From the IMG/VR virus record IMGVR_UViG_3300014819_000002, positions 1 to 64,000 of that record: a stretch of 64,000 nucleotides of DNA. One strand, given 5' to 3'. Under the pieces are notes generated by a model, which saw nothing but the letters and a program-made list of their open reading frames with translations, did not search any database and was not told the origin of the DNA. Below, one piece after another: positions 1-38,827 of this stretch. The position numbers were made by a program, and so were the translations under genes. Within the stretch, counting starts at the first letter, position 1; the number at the start of each line of letters is the position of its first letter. The stretch is from a virus.

Positions 1-432
1 TATATCATAATCTTGTCGTCCAACTTCAAGTTTAATAGAACCAGAATATGACTGAAGAGATTGACCATAACCAACCTCAGAAGCATATGGCTCGGCTTGT
101 CTTACAAGATATTCAAGATTGGGTTGAACATAGTTATTAACTAAATTAAGTTGATATTTCCCAGTTGCCGAATCTATAGAACCAGTAGGAGAACCAAGAA
201 GATATGATAAATTTGATTTAGCTTGATATTCAATCATGATTGCATTGAAATATAAAGTCGCCTCCTCAAAACATGCCCAAATCATCTTCTTAGTTAGCTC
301 AACGCTTAATACATCTTCCCCAAGCTTTCTTAAAATAAAAGTAACAACTTTATCGGCATCACTTTGGAAAGCTGGGTCAGAATCAAAGTAACCAAAACTA
401 GTTGGATTTAACGTAGTATTAAACGTAGACAT
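1..432 (-). CDS. Neck/head-tail adaptor protein, T4 gp13-like (runs off window start)
   Basis: Not in ORF track; manual translation from ATG at 432: MSTFNTTLNPTSFGYFDSD...FILRKLGEDVLSVELTKKMIWACFEEA, matching the gp13 LRxLG..V.VELT...I..C motif; frame open to base 1. Confidence 0.75.
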   Translation of the reverse strand, partial: MSTFNTTLNPTSFGYFDSDPAFQSDADKVVTFILRKLGEDVLSVELTKKMIWACFEEATLYFNAIMIEYQAKSNLSYLLGSPTGSIDSATGKYQLNLVNNYVQPNLEYLVRQAEPYASEVGYGQSLQSYSGSIKLEVGRQDYDI

Positions 433-3224: not shown

Positions 3225-3911
3225 TTACTTGATCTTACGAGCGTGCGCCTTCTCAATATGACGCTGAATGTCAGCCACTGTCCACTTAGTATTACGAATA
3301 TACCGCCGCCGACTATGATAATAAGGAAATGCACGATCAACACCGCCCTGAGCCATAAGCGCAAGAGCACGATCAATATCTTCCCGAAGACGGACAAGCT
3401 CCGGTCCAAGTTCAAGCATCTGATTCATAATGCGTGCTGTAAGTTCTGCCTTACGCTCCGCTGCACGCTCCTTACGCTTTGTCCAAGCCTCTGCACGTTC
3501 CTGCCGAATACGAATCTTATCCTCGTCAGAAAGGGCATTAAAAGCCTTCCTACGCTCCTTAGCAAGCTCCCTACGTCGGTTCTTATTATAAATATTACGA
3601 GCTTCAATGATAGCCTTATGCAACGGCGAACTATCGTCATGATAACCAATGCCAAATTCAGCTAGATTTGACCGTGCCCAATTATAAATAGACCAAACAC
3701 TATGCTCCTCGTGCCAATTTACACCACCATCAACAGAAATCGAAATTGTATAATCTGGATACCATAGATTTGCACCTATCGATGCAGACCATTTAAATTG
3801 ATATTTTCCATCAATACCAAAAGAGCTAACAGTATTCTGTTGTTTTGAGAATACCTCGAAACCGGTGGAATTATTCAAACGATGATGCGGAGTATTAATA
3901 CTACTAGTCAT
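3225..3911 (-). CDS. Hypothetical protein, probably early and leaderless
   Basis: 228-aa ORF with GC-richer basic helical C-terminal half; promoter directly upstream of ATG. Confidence 0.6.
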   Translation of the reverse strand: MTSSINTPHHRLNNSTGFEVFSKQQNTVSSFGIDGKYQFKWSASIGANLWYPDYTISISVDGGVNWHEEHSVWSIYNWARSNLAEFGIGYHDDSSPLHKAIIEARNIYNKNRRRELAKERRKAFNALSDEDKIRIRQERAEAWTKRKERAAERKAELTARIMNQMLELGPELVRLREDIDRALALMAQGGVDRAFPYYHSRRRYIRNTKWTVADIQRHIEKAHARKIK

Positions 3912-5902: not shown

Positions 5903-7363
5903 CTATAATTTGAGCTCATATAGATTATTGCTGCAACCAAATACTTTCCAAACTTTATTTTCTTCTGCTACCTCTTTTTCGGTTTTATCTTTTGTAGCAC
6001 GAAATTTAAAGCGGGGATATCTAATTTTACCATCAGTATACCAATAATTGATCCCTGTATCTTCTTTCACACAAGAAAACCCAGACTGAAGATAAACATT
6101 TCCATATCCAAATCTTAAATCACAATAGCTTATTATTCTTCTATATCCAGTTTCCGGAATTAACCAAGCATCTATAGAATGCTTTAATAACCTACTAAAA
6201 CCACCACGTACATTCGTATACAACTTGTTAGCATATCTCGCTATCTCAATTACATCCGGATTGCTCTTAATCCATTTCTTCTTTTGTTGAGGAACTCTCC
6301 ATGACATAGCCGCTACAATATCTCCATTGTATTCTAATCCAAAATACTTGCTAGCAGGTACATTCCCGGATATATGCGAACAATCAAAAAACTTATGAGC
6401 AGATTGAGGCTTTAATTCCACTATAGAACATTTCCTCGCATCAATATTTGATATGTTACCGGATCTTAATCTACTAGATATCATCGATTTTACAATATCA
6501 GATTTGCTTTCCCATTCGTCAGAAAAAACATGAAAAAGAGAATAATTTATTTCTTTGCATTTCTTTGTTTTTTCTTGATGATGCGTTTTTCCAACTTTTT
6601 CTACATCATGCCAATATAATCCATTATATTCAATGGCAAAATTCTTATCTAAAACTACTATATCTAATTCTTTTGGAGAGATAAGAGTTCTATTATTACG
6701 TTTAATTTGATAGCCTAAACTTTCTACATAGTTCCCAACCTGGATCTCATCTTTTGAAACCATGAAAGGATAACAAAATATACACAACCCGCCACGTTCA
6801 TAAGCTTGTAATGTCTTTTCTTGTTTACCAAAACATTTGACACATTCCAATTTTAATTTTGTATGTTGTCTATTTGTATATGATTGATAATCTGATAAAC
6901 AATAAAACTCTTTTGATCGCAACTCAATTCTTTTATTGAATTCTTCTTCTGATATTGTTTTTAATTTAGAAATTATTTTTTTAGTAAATTCGGTATGTTT
7001 ACGACCATAAAAATGATTTGAAGAACCCGCAACTGCTAAAGATTGATTGTATATTCGAATATCATTTTCTTTTGTCAATCCTTTGTTCCATGTTTTCTTA
7101 ACTTTACCACCAGTTTTTCCAGCAACAGAACAGGCTTCTTTAACATGTTCTTTACAATATTCTTTAAAAGAAAAGGATACATATCTTGTATATTCCGAAC
7201 ACGACTTACAATATGGTCGTTTACCTTCATATAGATAATCTATAGTATATTGTTCTGATGTAAGCTTGTGCTTGTATTGCAGATGAGTTGATAATCCTTT
7301 CAATGTCTCAAAGCTCTCTCTGCATATCTTACAATCGTTTTTTTCCATGTAAAAACCTCTCAT
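5903..7363 (-). CDS. Free-standing homing-endonuclease-like protein (C2H2 zinc finger, NUMOD3-like motif, Hef-like nuclease domain)
   Basis: CKIC...HLQYKH; NHFYGRKHTE; ELDIVV...AIEYNGLYWH; C-terminal domain paralogous to 446..1987. Confidence 0.7.
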   Translation of the reverse strand: MRGFYMEKNDCKICRESFETLKGLSTHLQYKHKLTSEQYTIDYLYEGKRPYCKSCSEYTRYVSFSFKEYCKEHVKEACSVAGKTGGKVKKTWNKGLTKENDIRIYNQSLAVAGSSNHFYGRKHTEFTKKIISKLKTISEEEFNKRIELRSKEFYCLSDYQSYTNRQHTKLKLECVKCFGKQEKTLQAYERGGLCIFCYPFMVSKDEIQVGNYVESLGYQIKRNNRTLISPKELDIVVLDKNFAIEYNGLYWHDVEKVGKTHHQEKTKKCKEINYSLFHVFSDEWESKSDIVKSMISSRLRSGNISNIDARKCSIVELKPQSAHKFFDCSHISGNVPASKYFGLEYNGDIVAAMSWRVPQQKKKWIKSNPDVIEIARYANKLYTNVRGGFSRLLKHSIDAWLIPETGYRRIISYCDLRFGYGNVYLQSGFSCVKEDTGINYWYTDGKIRYPRFKFRATKDKTEKEVAEENKVWKVFGCSNNLYELKL

Positions 7364-27859: not shown

Positions 27860-27914
27860 TTATTTTTTCTTCCTGTTACTATGTTACTATGTTACGATTA
27901 TGTTAATTATCGTA

Positions 27915-27994
27915 CCTGAGCGGCTGGAATCGAACCAGCATTTTCAGATCCATTTACGGATAAAAGCTTAGAAGGCTTCCTCGTCTACGCCCAG
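27915..27994 (-). tRNA. Atypical D-armless tRNA-Arg(UCU)-like RNA with long variable region
   Basis: CUGGGCG/CGCUCAG acceptor; 8-nt linker instead of D-arm; GAAGC-CUUCUAA-GCUUU anticodon arm; 23-nt variable region with hairpin; GCUGG-UUCGAUU-CCAGC T-arm; promoter at 28015..28043. Confidence 0.7.
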
Positions 27995-28047
27995 ATTATC
28001 TTTAGCTCTATATAAATATAACAAATTTGTTGTTTGATATAAACTAT

Positions 28048-28614: not shown

Positions 28615-28853
28615 TTTGTCACAATCGGCTCAATACGAAGGCATCCCTCCCTAACCATATCATTAACAAAAATATTAACGTTAGTAGTTCGAATAAATGC
28701 CCCGTAAGCCTTATACGCCCTTTCTGCCACTTCCTCCATATACTGCTTAAGCGATCCGGTATCTGCGTGGCTCGTAATCCACAATCGCTCCACGAATTCT
28801 TCGTTATTACGAGCCGGGATAGTCCAATGAAAGAAATGATAGTTATTCATCAC
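28611..28853 (-). CDS. Hypothetical protein
   Basis: Overlaps both neighbours by 4 nt. Confidence 0.5.
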   Translation of the reverse strand: MMNNYHFFHWTIPARNNEEFVERLWITSHADTGSLKQYMEEVAERAYKAYGAFIRTTNVNIFVNDMVREGCLRIEPIVTN

Positions 28854-29962
28854 GCCCCAAGATCCGCAGCACGCTCGTTGAAATAACTCACAACCGTTGC
28901 AGGAAGACCACGGAGAGCGAAATCATCCGAGCCAACCGTAGGCATGAAGGAAGCCGGGCTAGCGGGCCGAGCCGGGCGAACGGTGCCATTGTTGAGAGAA
29001 TTCTCAATCTCGGTCAAACGAATGATGCTCACCGACGTAGTGTAGGTGCCATTCCAGCGAGCCTTACGGATACGCACACCCCATTTGCTACGGATCTCCG
29101 AAATGCAAGCCGGGATGCTCGCCTCGGCGTAACCCGAAACCTGCGAAAGATAGGCGATGGTGGACCGCTCACCGGTACCGGTCTGACTGTAATCATACAT
29201 CGCATGAAGCATCTTGAAGAGGCGACGATCCCGAACACTCGGACGACCAGCCGGGCGACCACGACGAGGCCGAGCAGGCGCCGCCACCGCAGGGATTGCA
29301 GAGGTAACAAGCGATCGACTAGTCTCGACGAAGTTAAGAACGAAAAGAACCCAATTTCCGATCTTCTCCGGGCTCACCGTGCCGCTGTGCTGACGGAATT
29401 CAATGGTGTTCTGCCGAACGTAGGCAGCGAGGTTAACCTTGTAGTAGCGATCCCACGAACGGCTCAGGATATCAGACGACGTGCTGCAAGCCGCTAGCTG
29501 CGTGCCGTAAGAACGGCTCCAATCCGCCATGCTCTTAAGATACGTGTTATTGTTCGCACGACGGCTCACCGGCATGTAGCTGTCGATCACGTTCTCGAAA
29601 GACTCATAACGCTTGACGATCATCTTGATCTCATTGATCGTGAGATCCGCAGCGCCGACGTGCACATGAAGCCCGCAGGTCTTATTAGCCGTTGCGCCCG
29701 CAGCCGAAAGAGCCGCTGCGACCGTGCGGAGCTGATTAAGCCCGTCGAGCCCACGAAGCACAGGCGAAACGACCTCGATGCCAGGATTGCCACGGTTATC
29801 ACGCACCGAACCATCGGTCACGATCTTCCAATGGGTCCGTGTTATGTGATTATAGCCTTCGATCTCGCAAGCGAAACCTGCTGCCGTGATAGCAGCATGA
29901 GCCGCCGACCTCGAAATCCCGATGCACTCGATCTCCACACCAAACGTCCGATTCATCATCAT
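28850..29962 (-). CDS. Putative amidoligase (COOH-NH2 ligase type 2) with C-terminal HTH-like region
   Basis: RTFGVEIE, WKIVTDGSV, GIEVVSPVL, TCGLHVHVG, RYYKVNL, TIEFRQHSGT. Confidence 0.88.
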   Translation of the reverse strand: MMMNRTFGVEIECIGISRSAAHAAITAAGFACEIEGYNHITRTHWKIVTDGSVRDNRGNPGIEVVSPVLRGLDGLNQLRTVAAALSAAGATANKTCGLHVHVGAADLTINEIKMIVKRYESFENVIDSYMPVSRRANNNTYLKSMADWSRSYGTQLAACSTSSDILSRSWDRYYKVNLAAYVRQNTIEFRQHSGTVSPEKIGNWVLFVLNFVETSRSLVTSAIPAVAAPARPRRGRPAGRPSVRDRRLFKMLHAMYDYSQTGTGERSTIAYLSQVSGYAEASIPACISEIRSKWGVRIRKARWNGTYTTSVSIIRLTEIENSLNNGTVRPARPASPASFMPTVGSDDFALRGLPATVVSYFNERAADLGA

Positions 29963-30146: not shown

Positions 30147-30515
30147 TTAAATCCTACCGTAATCATCTTCATATCTAATAATATCTTTTTCGTCACAAAC
30201 GCCCATTTGAATTTCAATTAATTCCATATCAACAGCGGCCCAGATTCTATGTTTTTGTTTTTTTGGAACTAAAATATGACCACCAACACCTAAATGACGT
30301 TCCATATCATCTAATTGAACTCTTCCAAAACCACTAACAACAATCCAATATTCGTTACGTTGTTCATGAGATTGTAAACTCAAACAACAACCTTTTTTAA
30401 TATATAACTTTTTTATTTTGTGATTTGAGCAATCTAAAATAACTTCAAAATGTCCCCATGGACGTTCTTCGGTTATATTTTTATTATTTGTTTTTTCTTT
30501 TTTAGGGCGGGTCAT
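30147..30515 (-). CDS. Cupin, mannose-6-phosphate isomerase type II C-terminal-like
   Basis: ERPWGHF, LSLQSHEQRNEYWIVVSG, KHRI, IEIQMG, DIIRYEDDYGR. Confidence 0.85.
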   Translation of the reverse strand: MTRPKKEKTNNKNITEERPWGHFEVILDCSNHKIKKLYIKKGCCLSLQSHEQRNEYWIVVSGFGRVQLDDMERHLGVGGHILVPKKQKHRIWAAVDMELIEIQMGVCDEKDIIRYEDDYGRI

Positions 30516-31273: not shown

Positions 31274-31707
31274 TAAATATTGGGTCGTTTAGCAGAATAT
31301 ATTTTTTCTAAGATATCGTTGCTATAAACATCTTGTTCGCCGCCTCCGATACCCCAAACACATGCAATTCCCAATTCATTACATAATTGCCGTTCTGGTG
31401 TATTTTTTTGCCCTCGTATACCTCCATTACCAAATATATTTGGTTTTAATCTTTTTAAGGCTTCGCATACTGTACCATCATGATCATCAACTGATTCAAC
31501 AAAATCAATACCCTTAATAGCTAATAAAATTTCTTTGCGTTCATGCCAAGGCATCATCACAAGACCTTTTTTCTTCATTAACCACGAATCACTATTTAAA
31601 ATGATTAATACACGTCCAAAATTTTGAGCACCCTTAATCATACGAATATGGCCAGGATGAATAATATCAAATCCACCAGATAAAGCGATTATTTGGTTTT
31701 TAATCAA
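31273..31707 (-). CDS. Cytidylyl/adenylyltransferase (TagD/RfaE-II-like)
   Basis: [26 protein letters not shown]. Confidence 0.85.
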
Positions 31708-32969
31708 AATTGTTCTGCCTCTGTACTATCTTTCAATGCTACCGTTGATGCACCGTTTTGCACAGTGTTCTGAATATAATCGAAATATCCAGTTCCTACA
31801 AAGCTTTGATGTTTAATTGCTCGAAAACCTTGAGCCTGCATTTCAAACTCTTTTTGTTGCAATTCAGAAAAACCTGCCATTCCATTTCGCTTATAATTCT
31901 GACTCAACTCAAACATTGAAGTATTAAGAGAATGAAAACCTGCAAGAGTAATAAACTGGAAACGATATCCCATAGCCGCTAACTCTTCACGGAATGTAAG
32001 CATCTGACCACGATCAAGATACTTAGACCAATTAAAGCTTGGAGAACAGTTATAAGCAAGTAGCTTATCTGGATATACATTATGAATGCCCTCTGCAAAG
32101 GCTCTGGCGACGTTTAAATCAGGTTTACTTGTTTCCATCCATAGAAGGTCAGAATAAGGCGCATATGCCAATCCACGAGCTATGCATTGTTGTAATCCAT
32201 TATGTACACGATAAAAACCTTCTGCCGTTCTTTCTCCGGTAAGGAATGAACGATCTCTTTCATCAATATCACTTGTTATAAGATTTGCGGCTTCACCATC
32301 TGTTCTAGCAATAATAAGAGTTGGAACATTGGATACGTCAGCAGCTAATCTTGCAGCAATAAGTTTTGCAATTGCTTCGCTCGTAGGCACAAGAACTTTA
32401 CCACCTAAATGACCACATTTCTTTGCACTAGATAATTGATCTTCAAAATGAACACCGGCAGCACCAGCTTCAATCATCATTTTCATTAACTCATAAGCAT
32501 TTAAATTGCCACCAAATCCTGCTTCTGCATCGGCTACTATAGGTTGCATCCAATCTTTACTATTATCTCCATTAACGCTATCGATCTGTTCACAACGTAG
32601 GAGAGCATTATTAATTTTTTTAATAACTGCTGGTACGCTATCTATTGGATAGAGAGATTGGTCTGGATACATATGACCAGCTAGGTTTGCATCTGCTGCT
32701 ACTTGCCAACCGCTTAGATAGATTGCTTCTAATCCGGCTGCTACTTCTTGAATTGCTTGATTTCCAGTAAGAGCACCAAGAGCAGCAACATATTCTTGAT
32801 TATTTAAACGTTGCCAAAGTTTTGTTGCTCCAAGGCGGGCTAATGTATGTTCCACCAAAACTTTACCACGAAGTTTTAAAACGTCTTCTGGTGTATATGG
32901 ACGTGTAACACCCTTCCATCTTGGATTTGTTTGCCAATCTGCCGCTAATGTTTCTTTGTTATATGTCAT
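31704..32969 (-). CDS. aceA: Isocitrate lyase
   Basis: [29 protein letters not shown], catalytic [25 protein letters not shown]; start moved to ATG 32969 because a promoter overlaps the longer start. Confidence 0.97.
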
Positions 32970-32975
32970 GTGGCT

Positions 32976-33004
32976 ATTATGACATATGCACAATTATTTG
33001 TAAA
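32976..33004 (-). promoter_or_regulatory. Extended -10 promoter, leaderless aceA transcript
   Basis: TTTACA-17 nt-(TGt)CATAAT-6 nt-ATG. Confidence 0.65.
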
Positions 33005-33037
33005 AATAAAAAGCCCGATGCTGTGCACATCGGGCTT
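33002..33037 (-). terminator. Rho-independent terminator ending the tRNA-Asn transcript
   Basis: AAGCCCGATG/CATCGGGCTT 10-bp stem plus U-tract. Confidence 0.85.
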
Positions 33038-33205: not shown

Positions 33206-33211
33206 GTCAAA

Positions 33212-33490
33212 CTCCATTTCCTGGACTCGAACCAGGGACCATTCGGTTACTTTGCCACTATAGTTTTCACTACCCTTTCGGTTTGTGGTCTGGACTATAC
33301 CATTACCCTCGTCTTTCTCGTTAGGGTATTGCCCCTCTAGTCTCTACACCTTCCTTTTGGGCTTGGCTCGGGATTGTCATCAGCTTTACCTGTTAAGAGT
33401 TCCCCGAATTTGGGCAATTTTTCATTCATAAATTTCTTAATGAAGCTGCTAACTGACAGCCGAACGCTCTACCAACTGAGCTAAAATGGA
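33212..33490 (-). tRNA. tRNA-Asn(GUU), intron-containing (exons 33456..33490 and 33212..33249)
   Basis: Joined exons give a canonical 73-nt cloverleaf: UCCAUUU/AAAUGGA, GCUC-AGUUGGUA-GAGC, UUCGG-CUGUUAA-CCGAA, CCUGG-UUCGAGU-CCAGG, G73. Confidence 0.93.
33250..33455 (-). mobile_element. Group I intron (IC3-like, 206 nt, no ORF) between tRNA positions 35 and 36
   Basis: P1 GCUGU/GCAGC with U-G at 5' splice site; P AAAUUCGGGGAA, Q AAUCCCGAGC, R GUAGAGACUAG, S GUAUAGUCC; terminal G. Confidence 0.92.
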
Positions 33491-33506
33491 ATACTAATCT
33501 AATAAA

Positions 33507-34070
33507 CTATTTTAAGTTTAACTTTTTTAACCTCTTATGTATAGCAACATCTGAACAACCTAACTTCTCTGCTATTTTTACTATGGATAGTTTTTCCAAC
33601 AACTGAGGTAAATCAACATTGTCCCAATCGATCTTTCTAGCTAATTTACCTCCACATTGAACTGAACATGTTTTTTGTTGTTTTGGTTTTAAACCTTCAC
33701 AAACTAGACATTTATCAAGAAATAAATTATTTCTCTTATAATTTGCATATTCTTCATTAAATGAAGAAATATTTTCTGGTAATGAAATTATATTTTCATG
33801 TATCTCAGTATGACATATATGGCATAATAAAACGCATTTTCTCAATTCTTCTGTGATTTTATTCCAAGATTTAGGATTTGCTCTTACGCCACCTAAACTA
33901 AAATCTTTTTTAGTTGGATCTTTATGGTGCAAAGCTAAGTTTGATAAACAACGATCATATCCGCAAATTTGACACTTGCCACCCATCGATTCAACAATTC
34001 TTTTTTTTGTATTAAATCGCCATAGCTTTACTTTTTCTGATTGTGAAGACAATAATGCACTATCTTTCAT
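33507..34070 (-). CDS. HNH endonuclease with C-terminal zinc finger and HTH
   Basis: CQICGY...LHHKDP...LLCHICHTEIH; C-terminal IAEKLGCSDVAIHKRL. Confidence 0.85.
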   Translation of the reverse strand: MKDSALLSSQSEKVKLWRFNTKKRIVESMGGKCQICGYDRCLSNLALHHKDPTKKDFSLGGVRANPKSWNKITEELRKCVLLCHICHTEIHENIISLPENISSFNEEYANYKRNNLFLDKCLVCEGLKPKQQKTCSVQCGGKLARKIDWDNVDLPQLLEKLSIVKIAEKLGCSDVAIHKRLKKLNLK

Positions 34071-34219
34071 GTGTTAAGATATACGGAGTCACAGCAAATA
34101 TTATATATCAGTTAGAAGAAAACATATTTGGATTACCAATTATCCTATCTGCCAATATAAACCCAGCATATCATATATCGCACATATTTTATACTGAGTT
34201 CATAAAAATGATAGTTACG

Positions 34220-38398: not shown

Positions 38399-38464
38399 AT
38401 GTTCATGATATCACATATAAGAAATATTTCAAGTAATATAATTTATCCAGAATTATTGTTAAAT

Positions 38465-38827
38465 TGGAGATGTGCGGTACTGCCCCGCAGTCTCAAGAGT
38501 ATTCAATTAATTTGTTGTCACATAGTATAGCTCTTTAATAAATTACCCATCATAAGCTTAACCAAAGAGCAGGTTGTATATGATATGGTTCCAATGTTTA
38601 AACTTTGGCAGTAGGAACTATCCTTACAAAGTCGAGTTTGTTTTATGACAATCTTAATCAATCCTCAAACGGCGTATCAACTAGATTGCTTACTGTCAAG
38701 CAGCAAGAGCGTAAGAGCTATAGGAACTATCGTTTGCACTTACTTTTGTTTACGGTTTTAAACGGTCATAAACGCCCGTTACTATGCAAATTAATTTTCA
38801 AATCCTGATCGAATCTATTTCATCCCC
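38465..38827 (-). ncRNA. ssrA: tmRNA, one-piece, 363 nt; tag ANDSSYSSYALAA (38696..38737)
   Basis: 5' GGGGAUG pairs with 3' CAUCUCC-A with G3-U70; GAUUCGA after 5' end; resume context AAGU-GCA-AAC-GAU; tag ends ALAA-stop; T-arm UGCGG-GGCAGUA-CCGCA. Confidence 0.93.

Follow-up and report, generated by a model that had tools for sequence, protein, structure and literature searches.

In a widely cited review, Hausner, Hafez & Edgell 2014 (PMC3984707) placed all phage group I introns then known in protein genes, despite the many tRNA genes that phages carry. On the bacterial side, Williams 2020 (bioRxiv 10.1101/2020.01.27.920355) extended the four classical tRNA intron types, which according to that work are listed as IC3 in a database, to 21, and its seed alignment includes Pam37.Asn.4Ug and Wba81.Asp.4Ug, so that a bacterial class of introns at position 35/36 of tRNA-Asn has already been described. 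Here we analyze the first 64 kb (hereafter the window) of a 103-kb virus record of IMG/VR (IMGVR_UViG_3300014819_000002, positions 1 to 64,000), in which a tRNA-Asn(GUU) gene is split between U35 and U36 by a 206-nt group I intron without an open reading frame (ORF) and lies directly downstream of a gene for a free-standing HNH endonuclease. Reading the sequence as a whole, we estimate a probability of roughly 85% that the locus comprises a functional tRNA-Asn(GUU), an ORF-less group I ribozyme of the Asn.4Ug class at 35/36, and a cassette mobilized by the HNH protein in the manner of the T4 endonuclease SegB. The combination of tRNA and site is not new in itself; what this locus adds is a phage-borne copy and the polymorphism of the cassette.

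The intron shares with bacterial Asn.4Ug its host tRNA-Asn(GUU), the 35/36 site, a U at position -1 and the terminal (omega) G, but differs in its phage carrier, in its sequence (~60-71% identity to bacterial introns) and in the free-standing HNH gene attached to it. Like the IC3 introns Leu.3Ug (cyanobacterial and plastid tRNA-Leu(UAA)) and Ile2.5Ug (Azoarcus tRNA-Ile(CAU)), it is an ORF-less anticodon-loop ribozyme of ~200 nt, and as in the classical IC3 introns the anticodon arm supplies its P1 and P10, and P2 and P9 are capped by GNRA loops; unlike them, it occupies another tRNA and another position of the loop. The Synechocystis tRNA-fMet intron encodes the PD-(D/E)XK enzyme I-Ssp6803I (Bonocora & Shub 2001, as cited in PMC3984707), and the window intron differs from it in having no ORF. 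In phages, introns termed enigmatic were found in tRNA genes of the Lak megaphages and stated to be previously unreported (Devoto et al. 2019, PMC6784885); the window resembles these in having an intron in a phage tRNA gene, but its insert is a genuine ribozyme of group I, a class to which the Lak inserts were not assigned. Group I introns in tRNAs of the candidate phyla radiation (CPR) are mentioned in passing in PMC8172020, and tRNAscan-SE 2.0 limits its mention of introns to fMet and Ile2. We rejected PMC5733544 as a precedent, as its 'group I introns' are inserts of 22-49 nt, and found no description of group I introns in phage tRNA genes in the literature.

The nearest analogue of the neighboring gene is SegB, a free-standing GIY-YIG homing endonuclease of the T4 tRNA cluster, whose preferred cut falls within the tRNA-Asn of phage T2L and whose action leads to co-inheritance of neighboring tRNA genes (PMC2330249). 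The window enzyme is similarly free-standing, located in a phage tRNA cluster and variably present among related phages; it is an HNH and not a GIY-YIG protein, however, and SegB has no association with an intron. By this analogy the window HNH would be SegB-like in mode of action at most, and not a member of the SegB family.

The split tRNA-Asn gene and its intron

Joining the two exons in silico (Table 1) yields a 73-nt canonical cloverleaf which ARAGORN calls as tRNA-Asn(gtt), with the anticodon loop CUGUUAA and the discriminator base G73, in agreement with the first-pass annotation, which had proposed a group I intron at 35/36 whose removal restores this tRNA. The 5' exon contributes the 5' strand of the acceptor stem, the D arm, the 5' strand of the anticodon stem and the loop bases C32, U33, G34 and U35; the 3' exon contributes U36, A37 and A38, the 3' strand of the anticodon stem, the variable loop, the T arm, the 3' strand of the acceptor stem and G73, and does not encode CCA at its end. 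When introns were allowed, ARAGORN detected the gene on its own, at c[33211,33491] i(37,206). Neither default ARAGORN nor the Rfam tRNA model called it, and the expectation that annotation would easily overlook such a gene was borne out. Only the 35/36 split combines a loop of 7 nt with a U at -1 and a G at the end of the intron, and the intron boundaries are therefore unambiguous. The host tRNA-Asn(GUU) with G73 and the split CUGU/c...g/UAA, after the fourth loop nucleotide, are those of the class Asn.4Ug; its bacterial carrier is replaced here by an IMG/VR virus record.

A search with group I models, as suggested in the first-pass annotation, matched RF00028 (Intron_gpI) over the full model (1-253) at 33465..33269 on the minus strand, with 66.9 bits and E = 8.7e-15 against a gathering score of 50 bits, which places the match far outside chance. 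No ORF was found within the 206 nt. Helices were mapped by hand, with intron nucleotide i corresponding to window position 33456 minus i. The P1 helix carries a U35·G7 wobble at the 5' splice site, and this pair is U·G in 13/13 aligned homologues. P10 is paired in 98% of the cells of the alignment, with A-U changing to G·U in sister phages, and P7 is 100% paired, with 5/6 pairs invariant; the wobble, the conserved core and the terminal G that had been noted at first reading thus all stand. GAAA loops on P2, P9a and P9b and the lack of P5abc are visible. The IC3 architecture combines P2 and the lack of a P5abc extension with tetraloop-receptor contacts L2-P8 and L9-P5, and the intron is a candidate member of this subgroup by resemblance. 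A search for a classical cyanobacterial Leu intron as IC3 comparator returned the Asn locus again and one sub-threshold match.

Covariation was assessed for the 64 hand-mapped pairs of P1 to P10 on an alignment of 13 sequences, comprising the 4 phage copies together with copies from Clostridia, Omnitrophota, Planctomycetes and Gammaproteobacteria. Cells were paired in 89.9% of cases, against 76.4% in shuffled alignments and 32-43% when partners were slid, and compensatory changes on both sides were seen in 31/64 pairs; the observed values were reached by 0/500 shuffles. Double changes affected 7/7 pairs of P2, 6/7 of P3, 2/6 of P4 and 5/7 of P8. The paired fraction and the double changes, together with the invariant U·G pair and the mostly invariant P7, form the pattern expected of a ribozyme under purifying selection.

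From this anatomy we infer a conventional order of events. The split tRNA is probably transcribed together with the upstream HNH gene, the transcript ending at a terminator-like hairpin predicted by a consensus scan, and the intron would then fold so that P1 presents the U35·G wobble. Free guanosine held in P7 would attack after U35, P10 would align the 3' exon while G206 takes the place of the free G, and ligation of the exons would restore the loop CUGUUAA.

Table 1. Features of the locus, intron elements and other genes of the window
Feature	Window position	Intron nt	Strand	Basis or detail
tRNA-Asn(GUU) 5' exon, 35 nt	33456..33490		-	in-silico splicing; ARAGORN intron mode
ORF-less group I intron, 206 nt, between U35 and U36	33250..33455		-	RF00028; covariation
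tRNA-Asn 3' exon, 38 nt	33212..33249		-	in-silico splicing
Internal guide sequence GCAGCU	33444..33449	7-12	-	pairs with exon GGCUGU (P1)
P10 strand GUUA	33450..33453	3-6	-	pairs with first four 3'-exon bases UAAC (4 bp)
P2, GAAA cap		13-30		mapped helix
P3		38-44 with 122-128		mapped helix
P4		49-54 with 83-88		mapped helix
P5		58-79		mapped helix
P6		89-108		mapped helix
P7 (G-binding helix), bulged A113	33292..33344	112-118 with 159-164	-	encloses P3' and P8
P8		129-151		mapped helix
P9, three-way element, two further GAAA loops		168-201		mapped helix
Terminal (omega) G, G206	33250..33250	206	-	intron end ...CAAAG
Free-standing HNH endonuclease gene P0001, 187 aa	33507..34070		-	PHROG matches
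Presence/absence cassette, HNH and intron-split tRNA-Asn, 922 bp	33207..34128		.	contig joint 33206->34129
Terminator-like hairpin with T-rich tail, ~175 nt downstream of tRNA	33011..33037		-	consensus scan only
486-aa homing endonuclease	5903-7363
T4-like portal, 1513 aa	14121-18662		-	two intein-type inserts (Hint + LAGLIDADG; Intein_splicing + HNH-like)
tRNA-like gene, 82 nt	27914-27995		-	ARAGORN 4-base 'ttta' anticodon, enlarged loop
Amidoligase, metabolic-looking	28850-29962		-	PF12224
Cysteine-dioxygenase-like protein	30147-30515		-	weak PHROG match
Isocitrate-lyase family protein	31704-32993		-	PF00463, 1.6e-106
Phage-encoded transfer-messenger RNA (tmRNA)	38464-38827		-	RF00023, 76 bits, E ~1e-27
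Large terminase, 1014 aa	40169-43213		-	one intein with LAGLIDADG

The HNH gene and its cassette

The HNH gene ends 16 nt upstream of the tRNA. Its product matches phrog_35854 (E = 2.9e-32) and 10 further PHROGs, all of them HNH and none GIY-YIG, and no tRNA remnant was found upstream of the gene. Of 20 loci with relatives in IMG/VR, 13 place the relative between tRNA genes, and tRNA-Asn genes adjoin the five of highest identity (45-57%); the HNH protein that Klebsiella phage Muenster encodes beside tRNA-Asn is 44% identical to the window protein over 68 residues. The matches identify the window protein as a free-standing endonuclease of homing type, whose lineage inhabits phage tRNA clusters and is usually found beside tRNA-Asn.

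Contigs from four independent studies were compared across the locus. In one lake metagenome (run X3), a high-depth genome (~33x) breaks off at 33206 and 34129 and a contig of depth 39 joins both points, while contigs containing the 922-bp segment are present at depth 5-11 as compared with ~33 in the flanks, such that the dominant variant in this lake is devoid of the segment. The same joint is present in run X11 at depth 9.8. The joint, seen in both runs, and the low depth of the contigs with the segment show that the HNH gene and the split tRNA constitute a natural presence/absence cassette. The activity and target of the enzyme are predictions from sequence; by analogy with T4 SegB, the HNH protein most likely drives the gain and loss of the whole cassette by co-conversion.

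Three sister viral contigs possess the same intron at the same site (92-95% intron identity). Their segment consisting of tRNA and intron is ~90% identical to that of the window, as opposed to 68-80% for the flanking genes, and the anticodon stems of the sisters display compensatory replacements, U-A to A-U at 27-43 and U-A to G-C at 28-42; these two pairs indicate selection on the mature tRNA. The HNH gene, intact in the window, is represented by an N-terminal fragment in contig L271 and by a 36-residue remnant in L273 (= L265), and is absent from L274. The position of an HNH gene directly upstream, the polymorphic cassette of HNH and tRNA, and the decay of the HNH gene in sister phages are new features of this locus.

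The proximity of an ORF-less intron and a free-standing endonuclease raises the possibility of collaborative homing or immunity, in which the HNH protein would cut intron-less tRNA-Asn genes of rival phages, or even of the host, near 35/36, the intron would protect the resident copy, and the two would spread together. Pairs of this kind are reportedly formed by the psbA intron of cyanophage S-PM2 with F-CphI and by the nrdA intron of Aeh1 with MobE; both introns are said to reside in protein genes, and cleavage of the intron-less allele is said to have been shown. The window likewise combines an ORF-less group I intron with an adjoining free-standing endonuclease gene 16 nt away, the two are lost as one cassette, the closest HNH relatives adjoin tRNA-Asn, and in contig L252 a 49%-identical HNH gene precedes another intron-split tRNA with a GUU anticodon. 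Unlike in those pairs, however, the window intron lies in a tRNA gene, no intron-less allele has been found and the HNH relatives do not support the link. In contigs L250, L251, L253 and L254 four of the closest relatives of the HNH gene stand beside intron-less tRNA-Asn genes with an intact C/UUGUUAA loop, and the intron is therefore not required for coexistence with the enzyme; conversely, the intron is kept in the sister phages in which the HNH gene is decayed or absent. Moreover, in the best-studied analogue, SegB, the cut falls in the T arm and not in the anticodon loop (PMC2330249). We therefore regard collaborative homing as unlikely. Somewhat more doubtful still is its fullest form, a co-adapted unit whose cassette would home as a whole after the HNH protein has cut competitors' or host intron-less tRNA-Asn genes in the anticodon region and the intron has shielded the phage's own copy; if true, collaborative homing would thereby be described for an RNA gene for the first time. 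Our preferred reading is that the HNH protein is not the intron's own mobility enzyme.

The search for alleles proposed in the first-pass annotation succeeded on one side: copies with the intron were recovered in the sister contigs, but an intron-less allele of this phage tRNA-Asn gave 0 matches in IMG/VR and 1 unrelated match in the metagenomes of the Joint Genome Institute (JGI). The JGI match (L377) was rejected as such an allele: its acceptor stem differs, it is identical at 54/73 positions, and it shows no further likeness to the phage. Apparent intron-less joints in reads (33240->33465, with the letters GACGGATTAACAGTCCGG between) were discarded as well; their anticodon stem is different, and they therefore derive from tRNA-Asn genes of other organisms and not from phage alleles.

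A further alternative is that the intron no longer splices and that the tRNA-Asn is a pseudogene, a dead relic carried passively. The cassette is indeed dispensable, being missing from the dominant X3 variant. Yet the catalytic core is invariant, compensatory changes have accumulated in P2, P3, P8, P9 and the anticodon stem, and across four phage lineages the segment has remained more similar than the genes that flank it, which makes passive carriage very improbable.

Occurrence of the Asn site and related tRNA introns

To delimit the site independently of the ribozyme, the search pattern combined the D arm of tRNA-Asn, an anticodon stem with CTGT at its end and the guide TTRGCAG required by a 35/36 intron, with the letters of the intron core excluded. 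It matched 99 species-representative prokaryotic genomes as well as 6 viral contigs, against ~1 match expected by chance. In-silico splicing gave tRNA-Asn(GUU) at 92/105 of these loci (87 prokaryotic genomes and 5 viral contigs), as resolved by a U(-1)/omega-G parser which itself demanded a G before the 3' exon; the inserts measured 183-334 nt, apart from two of 616 nt. Judged by record titles, the carriers include Woese-, Sacchari-, Berkel-, Blackburn- and Magasanikbacteria and other CPR/Patescibacteria, as well as Omnitrophota, Clostridia, metagenome-assembled genomes (MAGs) of Gamma- and Deltaproteobacteria, Planctomycetes, Cyanobacteria-labelled MAGs and Methylomirabilota. Introns at 35/36 of Patescibacteria tRNA-Asn and tRNA-Asp, which the first-pass annotation had mentioned with reserve, are borne out: Asn.4Ug and Asp.4Ug both stand in the seed alignment of Williams 2020, and the tRNA-Asn site is occupied in many CPR genomes.

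No splice was resolved for 13/105 matches, some of which are truncated by contig ends. The 3' exon was absent within 2.6 kb in L276, L299 and L371 (Nitrososphaeraceae/Nitrosocosmicus MAGs) and in L295 (an Aenigmatarchaeota MAG); these archaea-labelled matches to the 5' half could reflect a long intron, a split gene, mis-binning or chance. In Clostridia MAGs (L280, L313 and others) the split tRNA-Asn stands directly downstream of the 5S rRNA, inside the rRNA operon. An initial viral scan with CTGTNNGTTAG..AGACTA..ATAGTC produced 3 matches, none with an intron or a tRNA, which were set aside as chance.

The wide distribution of the class bears on the proposal, raised in the first-pass annotation, that the intron benefits the phage, by hiding the loop of the precursor from anticodon nucleases or by coupling the supply of tRNA-Asn to the guanosine/GTP pool. 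We found no specific point in its favor, the invisibility of the gene to default finders being a matter of annotation and not of biology. The loop of the mature tRNA, CUGUUAA, is an ordinary one and would be no less exposed than that of other tRNAs, this intron class also occupies tRNA-Asn of 87 cellular genomes, where the logic of phage defence does not apply, and selfish persistence explains the data; a benefit of this kind is accordingly hard to credit.

Related introns reach well beyond tRNA-Asn. The core motif of the window intron, GGTGTAGAGACT ... AGTCCAGAC, occurs in at least 120 IMG/VR contigs (L010-L129), in ~99 of them inside tRNA genes; most are Leu(UAA) genes (~51, the intron at 34/35) and Arg(UCU/CCU) genes, Arg(UCU) accounting for 11, and none of the contigs listed has a tRNA-Asn host. 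With related introns in ~100 IMG/VR tRNA genes, the rarity implied by the first-pass annotation does not hold. Several of the inserts with the core motif are ~690-750 nt long and may carry endonuclease genes. ARAGORN isotype labels of intron-split genes, such as 'Tyr(ata)' and 'Thr(cgt)', proved unreliable, and the U(-1)/omega-G parser was therefore substituted, for the Asn set only.

Cultured phages are among the carriers. In the jumbo phages Muenster (Klebsiella) and Turkey5 (E. coli), a group I intron of 230-231 nt interrupts a tRNA(CAU) gene just behind the anticodon, between 36 and 37, and the gene is unannotated in both. The intron scores 104 bits against RF00028 in Muenster (MT708547, L003:1435-1745; pre-tRNA at ~302826-303135) and 95 bits in Turkey5 (PQ471516, L002:1433-1750); in both phages the gene is part of a tRNA cluster, beside an HNH gene and tRNA-Asn. 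After splicing in silico, ARAGORN reads the Turkey5 sequence as tRNA-Met(cat) and makes no call for its Muenster counterpart. In the unannotated record of LR756501, a 735-kb uncultured phage, a tRNA-Leu(UAA) is interrupted at the classical position 34/35 by a group I intron of 205 nt (L004:1392-1682). Separately, phage tRNAs with a GUU anticodon but a long variable arm of class-II type (84-91 nt) were observed at L252:2833-2921 and 3579-3857, L003:1833-1916, L260:3878-3964 and L272:1486-1576; one of those in L252 also contains a group I intron of 191-192 nt, which the U/G rule places at 33/34.

In a tree, the phage Asn introns fall inside a clade made up mostly of bacterial introns of tRNA-Asn. 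When the motif used for selection is left aside, in contrast, they are 69-71% identical to phage Leu, 'Tyr' and Thr introns and 60-66% identical to bacterial Asn introns. The guide sequence that these introns share and the sampling through a motif bias both the tree and the identities, and we therefore make no claim on origin or on a role of phages as vectors, which the first-pass annotation had suggested. One of the two 616-nt introns (L275:5456-6071) encodes a PD-(D/E)XK endonuclease (PF11645, 6.3e-24) and in this respect resembles the Synechocystis fMet intron. It is identical at 611/616 positions between the 196-kb viral contig L275 and a 4.6-kb Romboutsia-labelled MAG contig (L292), with flanks at 87-95%; judged from the sequences, the pair may reflect sharing between phage and host, or else a mis-binned phage fragment in the Romboutsia bin.

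The carrier genome and the reach of the finding

The window has 35% G+C, and CheckV places the completeness of the record at ~25%. Its genes, packed on one strand, include a T4-like portal (PF07230, 3.4e-71), a T4-type large terminase, GroEL, an SbcC-like nuclease, a tmRNA and several homing-type nucleases, with a dense load of HNH genes and inteins. A close deposited phage was not found, GroEL identity being <=44%, and the sequencing runs listed as containing the stretch are DNA runs, with no RNA run among them, from ~12 studies, nearly all of freshwater. Judged by its sequence, the carrier is a large uncultured freshwater phage, distinct from a cellular contig. That the contig is instead a bacterial (for example CPR) fragment mis-called as viral, with an ordinary bacterial Asn.4Ug intron, is barely conceivable: misclassified contigs do exist in IMG/VR and the tmRNA, GroEL and isocitrate-lyase genes look cell-like, but the portal, the terminase, the SbcC-like nuclease, the selfish-element load and the one-strand packing contradict it, and the sister contigs are likewise viral records.

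The inteins of the portal and terminase genes and the 486-aa endonuclease (Table 1) reveal a genome heavily loaded with selfish elements. The isocitrate-lyase family, amidoligase and cysteine-dioxygenase-like genes, all metabolic-looking, adjoin the tRNA region, and the 82-nt tRNA-like gene is 94% conserved in the sister contig L273/L265.

Some points weigh against our interpretation of the locus. The variant with the joint 33206->34129 may hold other DNA instead of being a clean deletion. The gathering score of RF00028, which the window intron passes, was reached in 11/17 sampled homologues and missed in the other 6/17. Finally, as the contig amounts to ~25% of the genome, a second tRNA-Asn elsewhere is possible.

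The locus, together with ~100 others, renders outdated the statement that phage group I introns occur in protein genes only. Such introns are common in the tRNA genes of uncultured phages and are present, unannotated, in the cultured jumbo phages Muenster and Turkey5, and the split genes are overlooked by default tRNA finders, which means that phage tRNA repertoires are under-counted. In the polymorphic cassette of HNH gene and tRNA, the reshaping of phage tRNA clusters by selfish nucleases could be studied in nature, and the locus itself is a single instance of something widespread in public data.

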